Assembly (NCBI GenBank): GCA_045837725.1
Contig: JBEWZL010000076.1
Span: 62,001-126,000, forward strand
Origin: Vermamoeba vermiformis
Taxonomy: Eukaryota
Direction: 5' to 3'
DNA length: 64,000 bases
Positions 34,314 through 43,063 of this stretch are shown here, piece by piece (position 1 is the stretch's first letter; every line of letters begins with the position of its first letter). The notes under the pieces were generated by a model. It made no database searches. It saw nothing but the letters and a program-made list of their open reading frames with translations, and was not told where the DNA came from. The translations under genes and the position numbers were made by a program.

Positions 34314-35471
34314 TTATTTGTAAGTTTTAATGACGTAATTTCGTTTCTGTTGTTGTACAATACGGAATGTTGTTTGATTAGCGAGGTAGGTATTGATTGT
34401 GCCGATATTGTCACATATGAACGTGAAGATGCTGCTAGACCTGGTTCGCAAGTACCTACGAGACCACATGGTAACGAATCTGAAAATATTTAGCCAGATC
34501 TCCATTGGAAATATATTGAGCATATCATCCAATCTTCTAGCAAATGTAATGCATGCAATAATGATAGAATTTCTTTGATTTCGAGCTGCGGCGTAGTTCT
34601 CCATCAAATGATTGTTACTGTCAGCGTTTCGCTTCAAAACCGACAATTGGCAGTTGAGCAGCGATGTGTTTTTGAAGAATGCGTCTGTCAATTTACGGTT
34701 GAGATCGGACGCTATGTCTCTAACGGATGTTTTCTGAATACTTCGTTCAGAGAAGTTGCCTCGCAAACACAGCAAAGTCTTGGTTCGTCGCAAATATCGA
34801 CACAAACTGTCCACAATGACTGCGGTAATGGGCAAGTCAGTCACGTCTAGTTTGAGCAGCGTTGTATTCTCTTCAAGCGCTGCAAACAGCTCTTTGTATC
34901 CGTCCTCTTCCACGTTGATATTGAACGACAAATTGAGTTCTAATAGTGTCGTATTCTTCTTCATTGCTCGAGCTATTAATTTCATTCCTGCGTCTCGCAT
35001 TGATACCGCGGACAAGTGCAGTGTTTTCAGCGAGCAATTGAACTCGATAATCTTCGCAATGTCGTGCATAGTTGAGGAGTATGCGTCTTCAAAGTAGTTC
35101 GAGCTTAAATCAAGAACTCTAATAGTACTATTACATTGCACGTATTTGCTGAATCTTTCAATGACCAGTTGGTTGTCCTCATCGCACGGCAGAAATTTGC
35201 CCATAAATAGCCGTTTCAAAGAGGGATGACATTTAAGAGCCTCAAATAAAGCATAATATTGTGCGCTTGAAACTTTAGCACCAGTTAAATATAGAGCTTT
35301 CAACGTATGGTGCTTTGAGATCGCGCTTATAAAAAGGGAAAAGCAGTCGTCTGTCCAAACGAGCGGTGCGAGTTCTACTTGGGTTAATTCTGGCTCAATA
35401 ACGAATTTCTTAGCACTTAGCATCAGCTTTTTGATGTCCTCACTCGTCTTGGCTGCTTCAATGGACGACAT
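34314..35471 (-). CDS. Intronless RNI-like leucine-rich-repeat protein with a C-terminal F-box-like motif
   Basis: Repeats such as NSTIRVLDLSSN, NCSLKTLHLS, NTTLLELNLSFN; IFPMEIWLNIFRFV near the C-terminus. Confidence 0.85.
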   Translation of the reverse strand: MSSIEAAKTSEDIKKLMLSAKKFVIEPELTQVELAPLVWTDDCFSLFISAISKHHTLKALYLTGAKVSSAQYYALFEALKCHPSLKRLFMGKFLPCDEDNQLVIERFSKYVQCNSTIRVLDLSSNYFEDAYSSTMHDIAKIIEFNCSLKTLHLSAVSMRDAGMKLIARAMKKNTTLLELNLSFNINVEEDGYKELFAALEENTTLLKLDVTDLPITAVIVDSLCRYLRRTKTLLCLRGNFSERSIQKTSVRDIASDLNRKLTDAFFKNTSLLNCQLSVLKRNADSNNHLMENYAAARNQRNSIIIACITFARRLDDMLNIFPMEIWLNIFRFVTMWSRRYLRTRSSSIFTFICDNIGTINTYLANQTTFRIVQQQKRNYVIKTYK

Positions 35472-35841
35472 CTGATTTTTTAAATTAATAATTATTAATG
35501 AGTTTATTTAGCGAGTGAAATTCATAAAGGGAATATTTTGTTATGAGGGCACAATTATTTTAATATTTGAGATTTTCTGTTCGCGTAGGATGGTAAATTA
35601 TTAAATATATAAAATGCCTACCTTCGCTTGAACTTCCGATTGCTATTGATGAAGGATGGATAAACTGTTGTTATGTCCTATTGTCACAACGTGTGTGCTT
35701 TTGTCTTGTTCAAATCATTGAATAATAAAGTGTCGACCACCAAAGCATGATTTGTTTGACAGTCAAAATTGTTTTATTCTAAGAGTACAATACTTTGATA
35801 AGAAATTACATCCAAAATAAATATTAGAAGAAGAGCCTTAT

Positions 35842-38247
35842 TTAATCGTCCAAGGCCACGAGCTCGTCTTTCATGCGACCCTTCGCATCTCGTGCACTTT
35901 CTATGGACATCGTGAAGATCGTTTCTTTGTCCTTCACTATAAATGCAATATTATCGTCAATATAAATGGATATTAAGGTCAGTCATTCGTCGCACGTACC
36001 GTCAAAAGTGATGTTTGTTTTGCCAACACGAACAACATCGCCAGGCTTCAATGGCGCTTTCGTTACTCGCTTGCCGTTCAATTTAGTGCCTCTACTGCTT
36101 CCTAAATCTACGACATATGGAATATTGTTCTCGATCTAAAAATGAAATTCGCGTAAATTAAACATTTTTTTTTTGATGCAGATGCGTTTTTTAGTCCGCG
36201 AAGGTTCTAATACTTACGTCAATCTTAGAGTGATTTCTGCTAATATATTTATCATCGACAGAGACCTGGTTGGTGCTAGATCGACCAATCGTGATTGAAG
36301 TGCCCTTCGGCTTGATCGTTTTCAACTTGGCTCCTTCTTCGGGTGCTTGGATGTGCAGTGAGATACGACCCTCGAGATTTTTTAAGTATCTGTAGCCCTT
36401 GTCGTCTACATCCACTTGTTCTTTACCAGCGGTCGCTACGATAAATACCAAGACGTCAATATTCATTCAAAGTTAGGGGTACGCGATCCACGGGTATCAT
36501 CTCAAATTATTGCGATAATGGTCCAATATTATTATAGTTACCTTTAATTTTGTCCTTGCGCAATCGCATAGCATTCAATGAATTCACCCATTCAGTAGCT
36601 GCGACTTGATGTTTGGCTTTCAAGTCAAATGAACGAAGAGGTGTCTTGATAACAAAGCTGATTCGATTGATATTAGTCATCTATATCATATTTAATTTAA
36701 GTTATACTTACGAGTCACTGCCTTGCTGCAATTCAACGTCGCTGACATAACGCATATCAATCAACGCGTAAGGAATAGAATTGAACTGCGGAAGTTAAGA
36801 TTAGTATAATAATACTGATAATATCATATTAACTCAGTATAAAAGTAACGAGTCTTCAAATTATTAGGCCAGTAACAGTGGCACAGAGTACTGGCCACGC
36901 GTAAGATCCGCGGAGATTATTCCGAGATTAAATGGAGTACTTACGCTTGTTCGATGGTGAGGCTTGAAGAGATAAAAATAACCTTTATACAACACTCCAT
37001 AGAGTTTTTTGCGCTCGTTTGTTTCTCGTCCTGTAACTTTCAACAGCTCCAAATGACCTTCCTAATATAGTAATAACAAGTAAATCAATGCATAACGCTC
37101 AATGCATCTAATCGATACTCTATATAGTATTATATGTGGCTAAGTACCTTTTCTTTCTTAGTCTGTTGCGAAATGAAAAATCCTGCTTCGTTGAGAGCCT
37201 CCATAATCTTTCGATAACGCATTTCAATCAATTGTTCTTGCTCGTCCAACAGTGGCATCAGCTCCTTTAATAATAATAAAATTAGAATCATTTATATTAT
37301 TATTAATCGCTAAACTTAGGAAGAAAGTTGACAACGGACCGTTCAAATTTAGTAACTGAATCATCGTGAACGTTGTCATTATTTTAATACTATTATAATA
37401 ACTATATTATAGGTCATAAAAATGGTAGCTAAAGTTTGATCGCGCGAAATCTGAGTTTCTCGCGATTAAAAAATTAAAAATAGAGAACTTACTTGGCGAA
37501 CTTCTTCTTTCTCTTCAATCTCTTCTTTAGTATATTTATTCACCATGAGCTCGTGAAACACTGCTTCCCAGCTTTTAGCATCTGTTTCGTCGGATGGAGC
37601 CAATCTGACGATTCTTCCGGCAGAGACTAATAAAATTCTGAACGTATTAACTGGTCTGCCTTTATCTATTTGTTGCGCAGCAAGCTCATCTTCTTTTGTA
37701 ATGCTGTAAGGATAGACGTAGACTACGGGAAGGACCGAGTGTCGTTTTTTCGTCTAAATAAAATTTGAATTAATTGAGTACCATGTATTATAGTTCATTA
37801 TTAATACGGGTGCTCATATAGAATGCGTATTGATATTTGCAAAATCAAACGAAATTTAAATTTCTGTGGCAGTTTATTACAAGATATCTTTTAGGGTTGT
37901 CAATTTATCATGTACACGCAGCATTATTATAGTAAATATTTTTATAGCTTATTGATGAGTAAAAAACGACTTACATCCGAGCTGCTGTAAAAACACAATT
38001 GATCGGCATCTAGCTCGCAGTAATATTTTTTCCAGGTATCGTTATGTCTCTTTCTATATAAATAACCAGTGAATCTAATATCGTAGACACCAGATGTATT
38101 TCTTGGAGGCTGTTCGAGCCTCGACATCAGCAGTTGGATATCCTGCTTGAGCGCCTTGAAAGGATTGCGTCCAAGCTTTTCATCCTCTCTGCTGACGAGC
38201 TCTACCTCGCTGTGGTCATTAGTAGAGTTAGTGACTAGTCTCTCCAT
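35842..38247 (-). CDS. PH-PH-FHA domain adaptor protein
   Basis: PH1 FTGYLYRKRHNDTWKKYYCEL...AKSWEAVF; PH2 EGHLELL...ATEWVNSL; FHA ITIGRS...ISRNH...DLGSSRGTKLNG..LKPGDVVRVG. Confidence 0.85.
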
Positions 38248-38503
38248 CCTCGCGTTTAATAAATTGAATTAAAAAATCAATTCGTAAAATTCCGTTTCAG
38301 TTGTGCGCTTAAAATAGCACAAATTATCAACGATCGAAGAATAGTGGTATAAAGGCACGACGTATACTTCATGAAGATAGCGGTGATGCTGAGATTAACA
38401 GATCCGGAGTTTTTTGCGGATTATTTTGGTTATTTATTTATAATACAAGGTATATCACATTATTAATAAATGAGAGATGCTTCGTTGTGATATTATTCCA
38501 TTT

Positions 38504-39724
38504 TTAACTATTATCGTCTCGTAAAATTCGATCTATCAGTTGCCTAAACGCGGCTTCGATATTAGAGTTTGTTTTGGCGCTTGTTTCAATAAATTCTGTG
38601 TTATTCTTCGTGGCCCAGTCCTAAGAATAATAAGGTTATTAGATTATATGGCATATTACGATCGTACAAGGTAATAAAAATCAGATCCGGTACACGATCG
38701 TCGTTCAGGTACTATTTTTAACTCTTGAACGAAGAAAATATGCACAAGTATACATATATTAATATTTCGAATATTTACCTTTGCTATCTCTGCGCTGACG
38801 ACTTTCAAGTCAAGATCCGTTTTGTTTCCAACTAGAATCTTTGATACGCCCATGCAACTCTTATTAAGCAGCTCATTCCACTCAGTAGTCGCGGAATTAA
38901 ATGTAGCTATTAAGCAAGTATATTAGAAACCTTTAGGGATTTAACTAAAAAGGTTTTGAAAGTTTGGATCCAAAAAGATTCTCCCGCTTAAAAAATTATA
39001 CTTTACTTAGATAAATACTTACGGTTATTTGTAACGTCATATACTATAAATGCACCGTGTGAGCCGCGCAAATCACCGCCAGTAACTTGAGTAGAATAGA
39101 ATTAGTTTCTTGTTCCGTATCAAAGTAATAAATCGATTGTAACTTACTCTGCCTGAAATTTTCTTGTCCCCTCGTGTCCCACTATGAATATAATATTATT
39201 GATATGATATTGATGCCGTAGGATTAAATCGGTAGCTTTTAAGTGATGTATGACGTGCGATCGACACAATTAAGCAGAAAAAATCTGGTAACGTGGCGAT
39301 CACGAATATATTTACATAGAATACTAATTATAGAGTACTTTTTGCGTATAAAAGGATTATGAGTAAAACTGTAATTTTCATTTCACAAATTAAATTAAAA
39401 AATCAGATGGAAGCACAACAAGCCGCCAAAATTACTTACTATAATTAATTTGACCTTATCTCCTTTATGTTCTATTACTTTCTCCAAAAACTCCTCGTTT
39501 GTTTTGACTTTAGCATTTTCTACAAACGTGTCTTCAACAAATCTAAGCAGTATTGATGTTTTTCCGACATTAGCATCGCCAATAATACATATTTTAAATA
39601 TGTGATCGACTCTATCTGCGTCATCGCCGTTTGTTTGAGGCTGCTTGGTTGGATTGCCTTGCCCGCCACTCGTCGGAGGTGTGTCCGGCTTTTTGGGCTT
39701 GTTTTTTGAGCCTTTACCTCCCAT
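38504..39724 (-). CDS. Divergent Rab-like GTPase with N-myristoylation motif and no C-terminal Cys
   Basis: MGGKGSK; DHIFKICIIGDANVGKTS, WDTRGQE, IVYDVTN, LVGNKTD, ETSAK; ends LIDRILRDDNS*. Confidence 0.88.
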
Positions 39725-40000
39725 TAATGCTAGGTGAATTGATTTCTATTGTTACGCGAAATCAATCCTATTGTGGTGATAGGTTTAGTTGACGATCCAA
39801 AAATAACTCGTAGCGAAATACAACAGAGTGAATTTATTAAGGCTGGCGACCCTTGTTATATAAATAAATAAGCAACACACTGATAATCCTTTGTTCAATC
39901 ACAGAGGCTTGGCGTACGATCCATTGCTGTGTTCGGAGAAAAAATCCCGTTTTTGATTACTTATCGAAAATTTGTATATAAGAACACTAGTGTCTGTATT

Positions 40001-41934
40001 ATGGCTGAGGAAAAGCAATGGCGTAAGCAGATCAGCTGATCTTCCGTAGATGACTTTTCTAATCGATAATTAGCGTTTACTTTTCAATGCGGACGTGTGC
40101 AAGGTACCGCTAAAAAAACAAAAAATCCAGAGTGGACTCTTCATCAGGTAAATTAACTGTTTCGCGCCTTGAAGACAGATTTGCTCTCCAGGAAAATTTG
40201 AACACGAATTTTATTTTATTATAATTCAATATTTATCGCATTAAAATAATATGAATTACGCCATATTTATCCAATTTTAATTTTTAGGGCAAAGACAGTC
40301 GATTATGGAAGAAACGAATTAATTTTGACCAATCATTCCAACAAACACCCGCAGTAGTCACAGGCCTTTCATTATTAGATATAGTAACAGACGATGATAT
40401 AAGGTAATCGTTATAATCAAGATTTTCGTCCAACATTCGCTGATCAAATCCGCAGAGCGAACGTTGAGGCCGACAATATTTCAGCTGACGGCTTTGATAT
40501 TAAGGTAATCATAGCGCATTATTTTTAATATTTATACCAAGTACTAAAATTATTCTAAGATTACAACGTGGGGCGATACTAAACTGTGGTCCATTACTGC
40601 CACGTGGTTCGCTTACGAAAAAATTCCCGCGTCAGTTCAAGGCACTATGCTGCACAGTGGTCGCGTGGCCTTTAATAGGAAACTGAAGGGTTATGACCTC
40701 GACGAAGGAAGTCAAGAGCGATCTATCGTGCAAAGTGTCAAGTACCCCGTCAAATTCAACACGACGCCTAATGTAGTCCTTGGCTTCTGTCTCGTTGATC
40801 ACCTCAACGACGCTGATTGGTGAGTCAAAAAACTCCGTGGAAATAATAAGCACGTGATTGTTAACGAGTCGAATTTAGCCGCATGAAAGTTAAGGCTGAA
40901 AACGTGACGAATCAAGGGTTCGATGTACGATTGACAACATGGTCAGGTACGTATCAGGCATATAGTTATAGGGAGTATTAATATAATATGGCTTGCACCG
41001 TGTAGACAGTCACGTGTGGTCAGCGTCGGTGTGTTGGATAGCTGTTGACGGCGCATTGACACGATCGGCTGGCGGTAGAATTCAAACCGGTCAACATTTG
41101 TTCAAACAAGCACATCCTGGTTATCAACTGCACAAGGGCGAAGGTACAATCTTGGAACTATTCTTAAGGCCAGTTAACTAATGTTGATGACCCTAGGCTC
41201 GCGAGTATTGGCTGAGCACATCATATTTGCAAAGCCATTCACAAGTCACGTGAAAAAAGAAAATATTATCACGTTCTTGAGCGGAATGGACATTTGTGTT
41301 GAAGAAGAACGCGACTTAAGGTAAGGATCTACGGCTAAATTCCTTTCGCCAAAGGAGCTAACTAAATATTATAGAGTGTCTGTGGAGCCACAAAATCCTA
41401 CCGCGCAAGGCTTTGAGTTGAAATTATCAACGTGGAACGATTCGCGTGTAAACAGCACAGCAGCTGATTGGCTCGCTTTTGGCGACGGTGAAGCAGTTCG
41501 TAAGTACCCAGAAGGTGTATCAATCCTTTGAAAGCGTGACTGACATGACCTTTTGTATAGCTATACCCGTCAGTAATAATAACAACAATAATAAGAATGA
41601 CGACGATGTGCCGGGGCACGCAGCGAAAAAACAGAAAAATTCAGATGAGAAAGCGACTGTGACGAAAGAAGACGATGAATGTAAAATATGCTATGAGAAT
41701 AATATCAATACTGTTATTGTGCCTTGGTAAGTCCACCAAATCCGTTCGAGAAGGAGATCGACAAAAAAAATCGTCCTTTAAATTTTAGTTAGCTCGAGTA
41801 CTAATTGCTCTATTTTAAGCGGTCATATGTGCGTCTGCAACGATTGTAGTAAGATGCTTATGGCTAGCCAAAAAGCCTCGTGTCCGATCTGCAACCAGAA
41901 GATTCAGCAGATCATCAAAACGTACTCGACTTAA
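40001..41934 (+). CDS. Three H-type lectin domains + C-terminal C3HC4 RING finger
   Basis: Three repeats of I/VxF..F...PxV..G...lD....R..V...N....GF.....TWxD......xWxA; then CKICYENNINTVIVPCGHMCVCNDC...CPIC. The first tiny exons are uncertain. Confidence 0.85.
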
Positions 41935-42080
41935 CCACATCTTATGTTAATATCCGCTTTTTTTCTTGTAATAAATAATTGCTTCTTTTTTTGTAGCAGA
42001 ATCAGGACAAACGAAACTTCGAACCAGCCAAAAAAATTCTCAGTTTTTTTCAGTCAAACGTACCGGAGTGTCGACCACAA

Positions 42081-43063
42081 ATGGAGCACCCTCTACGCGA
42101 AGTGCCAATTGAATATGCTATTACGCATGATATTCAGCTGATCGAGCACTCACAGCCGAAGAGAAAACAGATCCTAATGCCGGATGGGCTCAAGATTCAA
42201 GGTCAAAATATTCTGCGACATGTGCTAGGCCCTGATTGCGACATTAAAAACTACAAACTCTATCGACATGCCTTTGCCACTCGCATTAGCAAGTTGGCGA
42301 TTCAGAGAGTAGATCTTAAGCAACAGATGGACGTACAAACCCTGCTTAAATCTGCTTTTATTATTGTAGTACCATATGGTAAGTTCTAGTACTATGCAAT
42401 TTACAGATAGATGCTAATCGCCTCCAGATTCCACCAGCCTTATAACAAAATCAGAAGCCCGCGAGGATCCAACCCTTTTGCAGGAGAAGCAGTGTGCGCA
42501 GCAAACAGGTAATAAATACAATGAATATTAGCAAGGTATTGAATTTATTATGCGGTACAATAGTCGAGGTGACTACTTCCAAGAAAAATGGAACGTCGGG
42601 TGCAAAACCGGATCAAGCCGTTACACTACCACAGAAGCAAGCTGAGCTCAACGAGAATACCGTTATTGTGGACAAATGTCCCCCACCTATCCACGAAGAG
42701 AATATTTCCGTTCATCAGTTCTTAGCACTCCTCAAACAGGCCTCGTCAACTTGTTCTTCGCTGGATCCGTCCCAGCACTGCTCAACACGCGGTCGTTGTT
42801 CTCTATGCAACAACAAGTCAGTGCCTGTGGTTAACGTAGGCTGCAATTGCTCGCTTTGCATTTCCTGTGCCCTCTTTCGAGTTCATATGGCGGATCGGAT
42901 GCACCACGCTTGCAATTGCCGCAAGAATACTTTGCCGTTCTCTCAATGGACTGGTGTCTCTGATGATATGAAACAATCAATTAGACAATTCGCGAAGAAA
43001 GTTCAAACTGATCCGTATGTACACTCACCGTACAATGATTTTGTTGATATTTTGACTCACTAG
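42081..43063 (+). CDS. Unknown protein with a Cys-rich RING-variant domain
   Basis: Three exons join in frame; RCSLC-x11-CNCSLCISC-x14-CNC. Confidence 0.6.

Follow-up and report, generated by a model that had tools for sequence, protein, structure and literature searches.

A spliced gene joining three H-type lectin repeats to a RING domain in Vermamoeba vermiformis: a candidate glycan-directed ubiquitin ligase

Gene model and transcripts

The stretch of Vermamoeba vermiformis DNA analysed here, 64,000 nucleotides (nt) of contig JBEWZL010000076.1 (assembly GCA_045837725.1, positions 62,001 to 126,000 of the forward strand; hereafter the window), carries a gene whose predicted product joins three tandem H-type lectin repeats to a C-terminal RING domain through an Asn-rich linker. 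A preliminary description made from the DNA letters had placed this gene at 40001-41934 of the window, and a spliced open reading frame (ORF) of 11 exons falls exactly on those coordinates, with its initiating ATG as the first ATG past an in-frame stop near 39884. The ten introns, all GT..AG, measure 51-140 nt and several contain CTAAC- or CTAAT-like branch sites, leaving a spliced ORF of 1257 nt that encodes 418 residues and a stop.

A word-indexed search with exon 5 led to a protein of 418 residues, P0001, whose 90%-identity cluster includes P0011 and P0010. P0011 is a complete 418-residue Trinity transcript ORF from EukProt labelled Vermamoeba vermiformis, and the window model matches it at 400 of 418 residues (95.7%) with zero gaps; identity to P0010 and P0001 is 95.5% and 90.9%, respectively. 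As P0011 is intron-free, this gapless match validates all ten splice junctions and shows a single mRNA to be the template for both the lectin and the RING part, as the preliminary description had supposed. P0010 (417 residues) comes from a contig of 1344 nt, which must be spliced because it cannot hold the genomic span of 1934 nt. Both ORFs cross the junction at intron 9, which joins the lectin exons to the linker, without a gap.

Further support came from mapping RNA-seq data on positions 39600-42500: three runs of raw reads with the same species label, and one run of contigs. The three runs yielded 119, 143 and 208 mapped reads, nearly all of them only 90-95% identical, so the RNA strain differs from that of the window. 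Depth was restricted to approximately 39990-42030. GT..AG read joints were among those listed for introns 1, 2, 3, 4, 5, 6, 8 and 10, with intron 4 spanned by 12, 8 and 23 reads in the three runs. The RNA-seq confirmation called for in the preliminary description was thus obtained at eight of ten introns, but no read joint was among those listed for introns 7 and 9, and the sole support from this mapping for intron 7 is a contig whose loose end runs on into the start of exon 8. Among the 40 strain differences listed (72 further ones are not among them), 38 lie at codon position 3 and two at position 1, a pattern of strong purifying selection on the reading frame. Taken together, these data establish a genuine gene that is spliced, expressed and kept under purifying selection.

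The missing joint at intron 9 is the one point in favour of a gene-model artefact, in which the lectin and RING exons would belong to separate transcripts. We consider this extremely improbable: both parts occur together in Trinity ORFs not only of Vermamoeba (P0011) but also of Copromyxa (P0004), Ceratiomyxa (P0035) and Protostelium (P0036), the P0011 alignment is collinear and gapless, P0010 is encoded whole on its short contig, and RNA depth is continuous over 41443-41733, across the junction in question.

No further copy of the gene was found by tblastn within the 64-kb window. A search of indexed sequencing runs matched no RNA run, and 14 runs shared only small fractions of the sampled words. 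As a separate observation, RNA of the same species label is 90-95% identical to the window in nucleotides and the EukProt V. vermiformis ORF 95.7% identical in protein, which suggests that strains sharing a species name have diverged considerably. These comparisons place the source of the window in V. vermiformis or a close relative.

Domains of the predicted protein

The domain boundaries in Table 1 were set from AlphaFold2 secondary structure. When the nine exon translations long enough to include (all except exons 1 and 4) were scanned singly against Pfam, H_lectin (PF09458) reached its cut-off of 24 bits in four: exon 3 (24.2 bits), exon 5 (30.6), exon 6 (24.0) and exon 9 (32.6); exons 2, 7 and 8 gave no Pfam match when scanned alone. 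At whole length, three H_lectin stretches were found in each of the two closest full-length orthologues scanned, P0011 (E 7.9e-52, 173.7 bits) and P0001 (E 7.8e-50, 167.3 bits). The three repeats align mutually over a common G..R / P.V / D.R / GF / TW.D / W.A pattern, and the GF..TW.D..W.A core that the preliminary description had noted is present in every repeat.

Comparison with lectins of known structure locates a putative sugar pocket. Repeat 2 aligns with residues 174-254 of discoidin II (DscE; E 6.4e-11), bringing DscE W238 and Y244 opposite W195 and W201, while in the family profile the whole of Helix pomatia agglutinin (HPA) aligns with repeat 1 (E 1.6e-16). In the latter alignment HPA R63, W83 and Y89 fall on the Arg of the family D.R motif, the Trp of the TW motif and an aromatic residue six positions further on. 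These three residues, together with G24, D26 and H84, are reportedly sugar contacts, and the numbering of R63, W83 and Y89 agrees with the printed HPA sequence. Column counts from a 36-row family alignment (Table 1) indicate that the Arg and the aromatic pair are kept across the family in all three repeats. In the window protein the aromatic pair of the predicted pocket is intact in repeats 1 and 2, and at least two of the three pockets are probably functional.

Structure prediction points to a compact arrangement of the repeats. An AlphaFold2 model of P0011, built with a 36-sequence family alignment, had a mean predicted local distance difference test score (pLDDT) of 88.4 and a predicted template modelling score (pTM) of 0.75; 324 of its 418 residues had a pLDDT of at least 90, and values stayed at 92-96 through both inter-repeat junctions. 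A second model, of the 35% identical P0041 from Planoprotostelium fungivorum, gave a pLDDT of 92.4 and a pTM of 0.78, with inter-repeat linkers above 90. The disordered linker and free RING make up about one quarter of each chain. One rigid triple-lectin body would be expected to give a pTM near 0.75, as opposed to about 0.3 for three independently placed domains. In Foldseek searches of the PDB, single lectin domains matched HPA (TMt 0.80-0.81), Helix aspersa agglutinin (0.80) and coral SLL-2 (0.83), and the RING matched MEX-3C (0.89), MUL1 (0.84), BIRC7 (0.82) and cIAP1/2 (0.73-0.77). A kinship of the triple-lectin body with apicomplexan perforin-like APC-beta domains was rejected on its weak Foldseek scores (7PLN probability 0.54 and 6D7A 0.38; TM 0.17-0.28; ranks 13 and 39).

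The C-terminal C3HC4 RING of the preliminary description is likewise confirmed. In the single-exon scan zf-C3HC4_3 (PF13920) scored 36.0 bits on exon 11, above the cut-off of 27, and 17.5 bits, below it, on exon 10; at whole length it scored 56.0 bits in P0011 (E 3.4e-15) and 59.3 bits in P0001 (E 3.2e-16). The window model has all eight zinc ligands (C366, C369, C381, H383, C387, C390, C402 and C405), and none of these varies among the 18 full-length members aligned. Its best sequence matches in the PDB are cIAP2 (profile E 2.8e-18) and cIAP1 (1.7e-17), followed by XIAP, MGRN1, BIRC7, MEX-3C, MYLIP, MDM2 and MUL1. In 37 of 39 family RINGs a tail of 13 residues follows the last Cys, as many as in cIAP2; in the window protein this tail ends Y-S-T and places Tyr416 opposite the cIAP2 tail Phe, third from the end. 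In cIAP, XIAP and BIRC7 the tail aromatic supports RING dimerisation and engagement of the donor ubiquitin. Judged by its sequence, then, the RING is of the inhibitor of apoptosis protein (IAP) type and, by analogy with these proteins, probably dimeric and active.

Between the lectin body and the RING, the Asn-rich linker includes a run of six consecutive Asn at 41575-41592. A second linker motif, LPPRA.PAPKR.LSIP.I flanked by long acidic runs, is common to the family members P0037, P0050, P0052, P0056 and P0060. The proposed lack of a signal peptide or membrane segment is borne out for the 418-residue model by Kyte-Doolittle hydropathy alone, with a top 19-residue mean of 1.04 and a mean of -1.05 over residues 1-30.

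Table 1. Features of the lectin-RING gene, its product and its neighbours; coordinates are those of the window, and residue counts at pocket positions come from the 36-row family alignment
Feature	Coordinates	Strand	Details
Whole coding region, ATG to TAA	40001..41934	+	11-exon spliced model, product 418 residues
Exons 1-6	40001-40022, 40074-40147, 40288-40403, 40456-40504, 40560-40819, 40879-40946	+	GT..AG splicing
Exons 7-11	41006-41143, 41197-41320, 41375-41499, 41561-41726, 41820-41934	+	GT..AG splicing
Intron 9	41500..41560	+	61 nt, GTAAGT..TATAG; joins last lectin exon to linker/RING exon
H-type lectin repeat 1, residues 6-110, exons 1-5	40016..40628	+	Pfam H_lectin on exons 3 and 5 and on P0011 at 41-106; HPA aligns here in family profile
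Repeat 1 pocket equivalents R71, W91, W97			R71 17/24; W91 17/25; position 97 aromatic 22/26
H-type lectin repeat 2, residues 113-216, exons 5-7	40635..41064	+	Discoidin II alignment; Pfam on exons 5 and 6
Repeat 2 pocket equivalents R175, W195, W201			Position 175 R or K 29/33; W195 29/36; position 201 aromatic 24/36
H-type lectin repeat 3, residues 217-326, exons 7-10	41065..41562	+	Pfam H_lectin on exon 9, 32.6 bits; repeat alignment
Repeat 3 pocket equivalents R284, W304, N310			R284 34/35; W304 33/35; position 310 aromatic 24/35
Disordered linker, residues 327-362	41563..41670	+	pLDDT <50 for residues 328-362
C-terminal C3HC4 RING, residues 363-418	41671..41931	+	zf-C3HC4_3; interrupted by intron 10 (41727-41819)
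Small GTPase gene, first exon	39395..39745	-	Ras family E 1.1e-9, Roc E 2.1e-8
Downstream gene	41997..43063	+	Likely ATG near 42082, intron near 42380-42436
ORF pieces with LRR_6, FHA and PH	34314..38268	-	LRR_6 (RNI-like leucine-rich repeats) in a 397-residue open frame, 34314-35507; FHA 36191-36466; PH 37942-38268

A family of lectin-RING proteins and the neighbouring genes

The combination of H-type lectin repeats and RING is not confined to this genome. An exhaustive HMMER scan of 1.84 billion representative sequences returned 6761 matches at E <=1e-3, 307 at <=1e-10 and 29 at <=1e-30, most of the weaker ones having a RING or H-lectin repeats in other settings. Forty sequences were then checked against Pfam, six from earlier searches and 34 chosen from 150 listed, favouring top ranks and matches that reached the RING; H_lectin was present in 39 and zf-C3HC4_3 in 31, so that at least 30 of these chosen sequences have both.

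Besides the Vermamoeba ORF P0011, the named members comprise transcriptome ORFs of Copromyxa protea (P0004, 43% identical to the window model), Ceratiomyxa fruticulosa (P0035) and Protostelium nocturnum (P0036), and a protein of Planoprotostelium fungivorum (P0041; NCBI PRP88554.1, UniRef100_A0A2P6NX58), the last three being 34-35% identical to P0011. All five are true homologues of the window protein and share the arrangement of three lectin repeats, low-complexity linker and RING with a 13-residue tail, and differ in the length and composition of the linker. The full three-lectin and RING architecture also occurs in a EukProt transcriptome ORF of the euglenid Ploeotia vitrea (P0061), which could mean that the family is truly more widespread, that the gene was transferred, or that the RNA came from prey or a contaminant. 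The remaining members are environmental records. A further word-indexed profile search returned 11 proteins at E <=1e-10 and no extra named full-length member, a result that does not establish absence in Dictyostelium or Acanthamoeba. Viral contigs searched with P0011 gave three loci that matched the RING only (residues ~349-416) and no lectin-RING gene, the search being pattern-limited and its negative weak; the ESM Atlas gave no usable match.

At source, family members are labelled "hypothetical protein" or "RING-type domain-containing protein", the latter in the case of PRP88554.1, and one JGI record has the automatic label "Zinc finger, C3HC4 type (RING finger)/H-type lectin domain". The preliminary description knew of no account of this architecture, and in the literature this view stands: a full-text search, with most subscription journals outside its coverage, found no publication that treats a fusion of an H-type lectin with a RING. 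As a statement about the databases it does not, since the architecture has NCBI and UniRef entries and defines a conserved, mainly amoebozoan family that is already recorded and uncharacterised.

Three neighbouring loci were noted in passing (Table 1). The divergent neighbour, which starts about 275 bp upstream, encodes a small GTPase in its first exon, preceded by a Gly/Pro/Lys-rich extension of some 50 residues before the G1 box; this begins Met-Gly and may be an N-myristoylation site. The downstream gene contains a Cys/His-rich stretch like a divergent zinc finger; it had no Pfam match at E <=0.01, and RNA depth from the diverged strain was zero there at 90% likeness. Pieces of ORF on the minus strand further upstream encode LRR_6, FHA and PH domains.

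Proposed function and relation to known systems

We read the gene product as a RING E3 ubiquitin ligase that is soluble, not secreted and directed to glycans by lectin domains in the same chain, and give this reading about an even chance of being correct. In such a protein the three lectin domains would pack together rigidly, probably as a pseudo-trimer resembling the homotrimers of HPA and discoidin, and up to three sugar sites, each different from the others, would lie where the domains meet. The flexible linker of ~36 residues would let the RING reach round a bound target, and the cIAP-like RING with its 13-residue tail would probably homodimerise and activate the E2~ubiquitin conjugate. 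Proteins adjoining the bound glycan would then be ubiquitinated and the target passed to autophagy or the proteasome; such proteins could belong to bacteria exposed to the cytosol, to glycosylated virus particles or to the lumenal side of torn vacuoles. The likeliest targets would be glycans that reach the cytosol only through accident or invasion.

Several observations, in addition to the two introns without a listed read joint, weigh against this reading or parts of it. The first concern the sugar pocket. The second aromatic of repeat 3 is changed in the Vermamoeba lineage, position 310 being Asn in the four Vermamoeba-type rows, the window included. Moreover, the other HPA contacts are not kept: the position of D26 is variable, G24 lies inside an HPA-specific insertion, and H84 is replaced by Gly, Ser or Asn. 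With just three of these HPA contacts kept, the sugar specificity may differ from Gal/GalNAc. These losses, and the existence of family members with only two repeats, also favour the view that the protein is an ordinary substrate-specific RING ligase whose H-type lectin fold has been co-opted to bind proteins or for some other purpose unrelated to sugars. We think this improbable, as an unused pocket would hardly explain why the Arg and both aromatics are conserved family-wide in each of the repeats, and as a 2026 preprint on Dictyostelium discoidins reports that the double change W238F/Y244S in DscE, at the pair aligned here, abolished nearly all glycan binding.

A second set of reservations concerns the pseudo-trimer. 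The preliminary description had suggested that three domains in one chain could form a self-contained unit of this kind; both AlphaFold2 models are compatible with it, with three-fold symmetry inferred from pTM alone and not from coordinates. Furthermore, P0050, P0052 and P0060 are without lectin repeat 2 in the alignment of full-length members, which did not include P0037 and P0056, and a closed three-domain pseudo-trimer is thus not obligatory for the family. Known H-type lectins are homotrimeric, and single-chain prediction is blind to assemblies between chains; taken with the two-repeat members, this leaves room for lectin domains that trimerise between chains and build higher-order lattices, with no self-contained pseudo-trimer. 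Such an arrangement is, in our judgement, decidedly unlikely. High pTM values and junction pLDDT above 90 recur in two members as distant as P0011 and P0041, and the three repeats have diverged from each other, as would be expected of fixed, non-equivalent positions.

The linker raises a different objection. A basic KKQK motif, not remarked in the preliminary description, lies just upstream of the RING at 41623-41634 (residues 347-350) in a linker that is otherwise variable. Of 50 family sequences with a RING, 29 have the pattern K[KR]x[KR] in their linker, where composition-preserving shuffles would lead one to expect 5.4; the pattern often stands in the context Pro/Ala-Ala-Lys-Lys-x-Lys, although the 50 rows are not independent, several being near-identical cluster members. 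KKxK fits the classical monopartite consensus for nuclear import; the conserved motif resembles a nuclear-localisation signal and would point to nuclear rather than phagosome-related action. The protein could on this evidence be a nucleocytoplasmic regulator, whose lectin body binds endogenous cytosolic or nuclear glycans, whose RING ubiquitinates their bearers, and whose KKxK motif drives nuclear import. Amoebae have a Gal-containing, hydroxyproline-linked glycan on Skp1, which might be one such ligand. The lack of a secretion signal by hydropathy would suit a regulator of this kind, as would the plant nucleocytoplasmic lectins fused to ubiquitin-ligase modules that are described in a review of sugar-recognising ligases. 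Conversely, the motif is missing in 21 of the 50 sequences, including the named P0035, P0041 and P0061, and a brief stretch of basic residues within disordered sequence can have other functions. Because the motif is conserved, action in the nucleus or on endogenous glycans has to be taken seriously as a competing explanation, although we regard it as unlikely on balance.

Cells detect ruptured vacuoles and cytosolic microbes partly by sugars that were never meant to face the cytosol, and in animals and plants this is done by a lectin with a separate ligase complex (galectin with TRIM16, Fbs proteins with SCF, F-box/Nictaba). If the glycan-directed ligase acts in this way, it would be a one-polypeptide innate-immune effector of amoebae, an ancient merger of sensor and ligase that predates metazoans. 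In this microbe- or damage-sensing version, which we put forward tentatively and by analogy, foreign glycans such as bacterial envelope glycolipids or giant-virus fibril glycans would be recognised on meeting the cytosol by the pseudo-trimeric lectin body with its three diverged sugar sites, and the IAP-type RING dimer would coat the intruder or torn vacuole with ubiquitin for xenophagy. The discoidin preprint describes these H-type lectins as cytosolic sensors recruited to damaged mycobacterial vacuoles, which makes recruitment of the present protein to damaged vacuoles or cytosolic bacteria more plausible. According to the same preprint, recruitment to damaged Mycobacterium marinum vacuoles goes via bacterial glycolipid glycans and did not follow sterile membrane damage, so exposed host glycans are the weaker half of the model.

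If the proposal is correct, one chain would unite roles that animals and plants split between a lectin F-box protein and SCF or between a galectin and a TRIM protein, and the direct lectin-RING fusion would be the simplest known form of this lectin-plus-ligase logic. It would also supply the ubiquitin-ligase step that is not mentioned in the discoidin preprint. Amoebae, in which the family occurs, naturally host many bacteria that live inside cells, as well as giant viruses. For glycan recognition, a single-chain trimer of H-type lectins whose three sites differ could in addition be of use as a scaffold. The small size and solubility of the protein, and the high confidence of its predicted structure, make its binding specificity, ligase activity and pseudo-trimer directly testable.

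Among characterised proteins, discoidins I and II (DscA and DscE; PDB 2W94 and 2VM9) are the closest in setting, being likewise cytosolic and amoebozoan with an H-type lectin domain; the preprint describes them as trimers with sugar sites at domain interfaces. They differ in having no RING, whereas the window protein has three lectin domains per chain, a RING and no discoidin (DS) domain: no Pfam match to an N-terminal discoidin (F5/8 type C) domain was found in P0001 at E <=0.1 or in P0011 at E <=0.001, and repeat 1 begins at residue 6. HPA and related snail and coral H-type lectins (PDB 2CCV, 2CE6, 4Q56 and 3WMP) have the same fold as the repeats but, unlike the window protein, are secreted, single-domain and homo-oligomeric.

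The RING, in turn, is of the same zf-C3HC4_3 subtype as the IAP-type RINGs of cIAP1/2, XIAP, BIRC7, MUL1, MYLIP/IDOL, MEX-3C and MGRN1, whose substrate-binding parts (BIR, FERM, KH and others) are unrelated to the lectins found here. TrafE of Dictyostelium, described as a TRAF-like RING E3 of the endolysosomal damage response found at damaged pathogen vacuoles, is likewise an amoebozoan RING E3, but it is TRAF-type and without a lectin, and there is no evidence of homology past the RING.

In its proposed logic, a cytosolic lectin coupled to ubiquitination, the protein resembles Fbs1-3 (FBXO2, FBXO6 and FBXO27), F-box/Nictaba, F-box/jacalin and galectin-3 with TRIM16. The review cited above covers the sugar-recognising F-box ligases, with Fbs3 acting on ruptured lysosomes and F-box/Nictaba in pathogen defence, as well as galectin-TRIM16. 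None of these is homologous to the window protein, and Pfam scans of P0001 and P0011 found no F-box, FBA or Nictaba family, making the likeness to lectin F-box proteins a functional one only. Sugar-recognising ubiquitin ligases are known as a kind, so that the architecture is neither categorically new nor unique to this genome; an H-type lectin with a directly fused RING is an unstudied version of it. Where the Fbs and other F-box lectins enter multi-subunit Skp1-cullin-F-box (SCF) complexes and galectin and TRIM16 are two proteins, built on FBA, Nictaba, jacalin or galectin folds, here an H-type lectin fold is fused straight to the catalytic RING.

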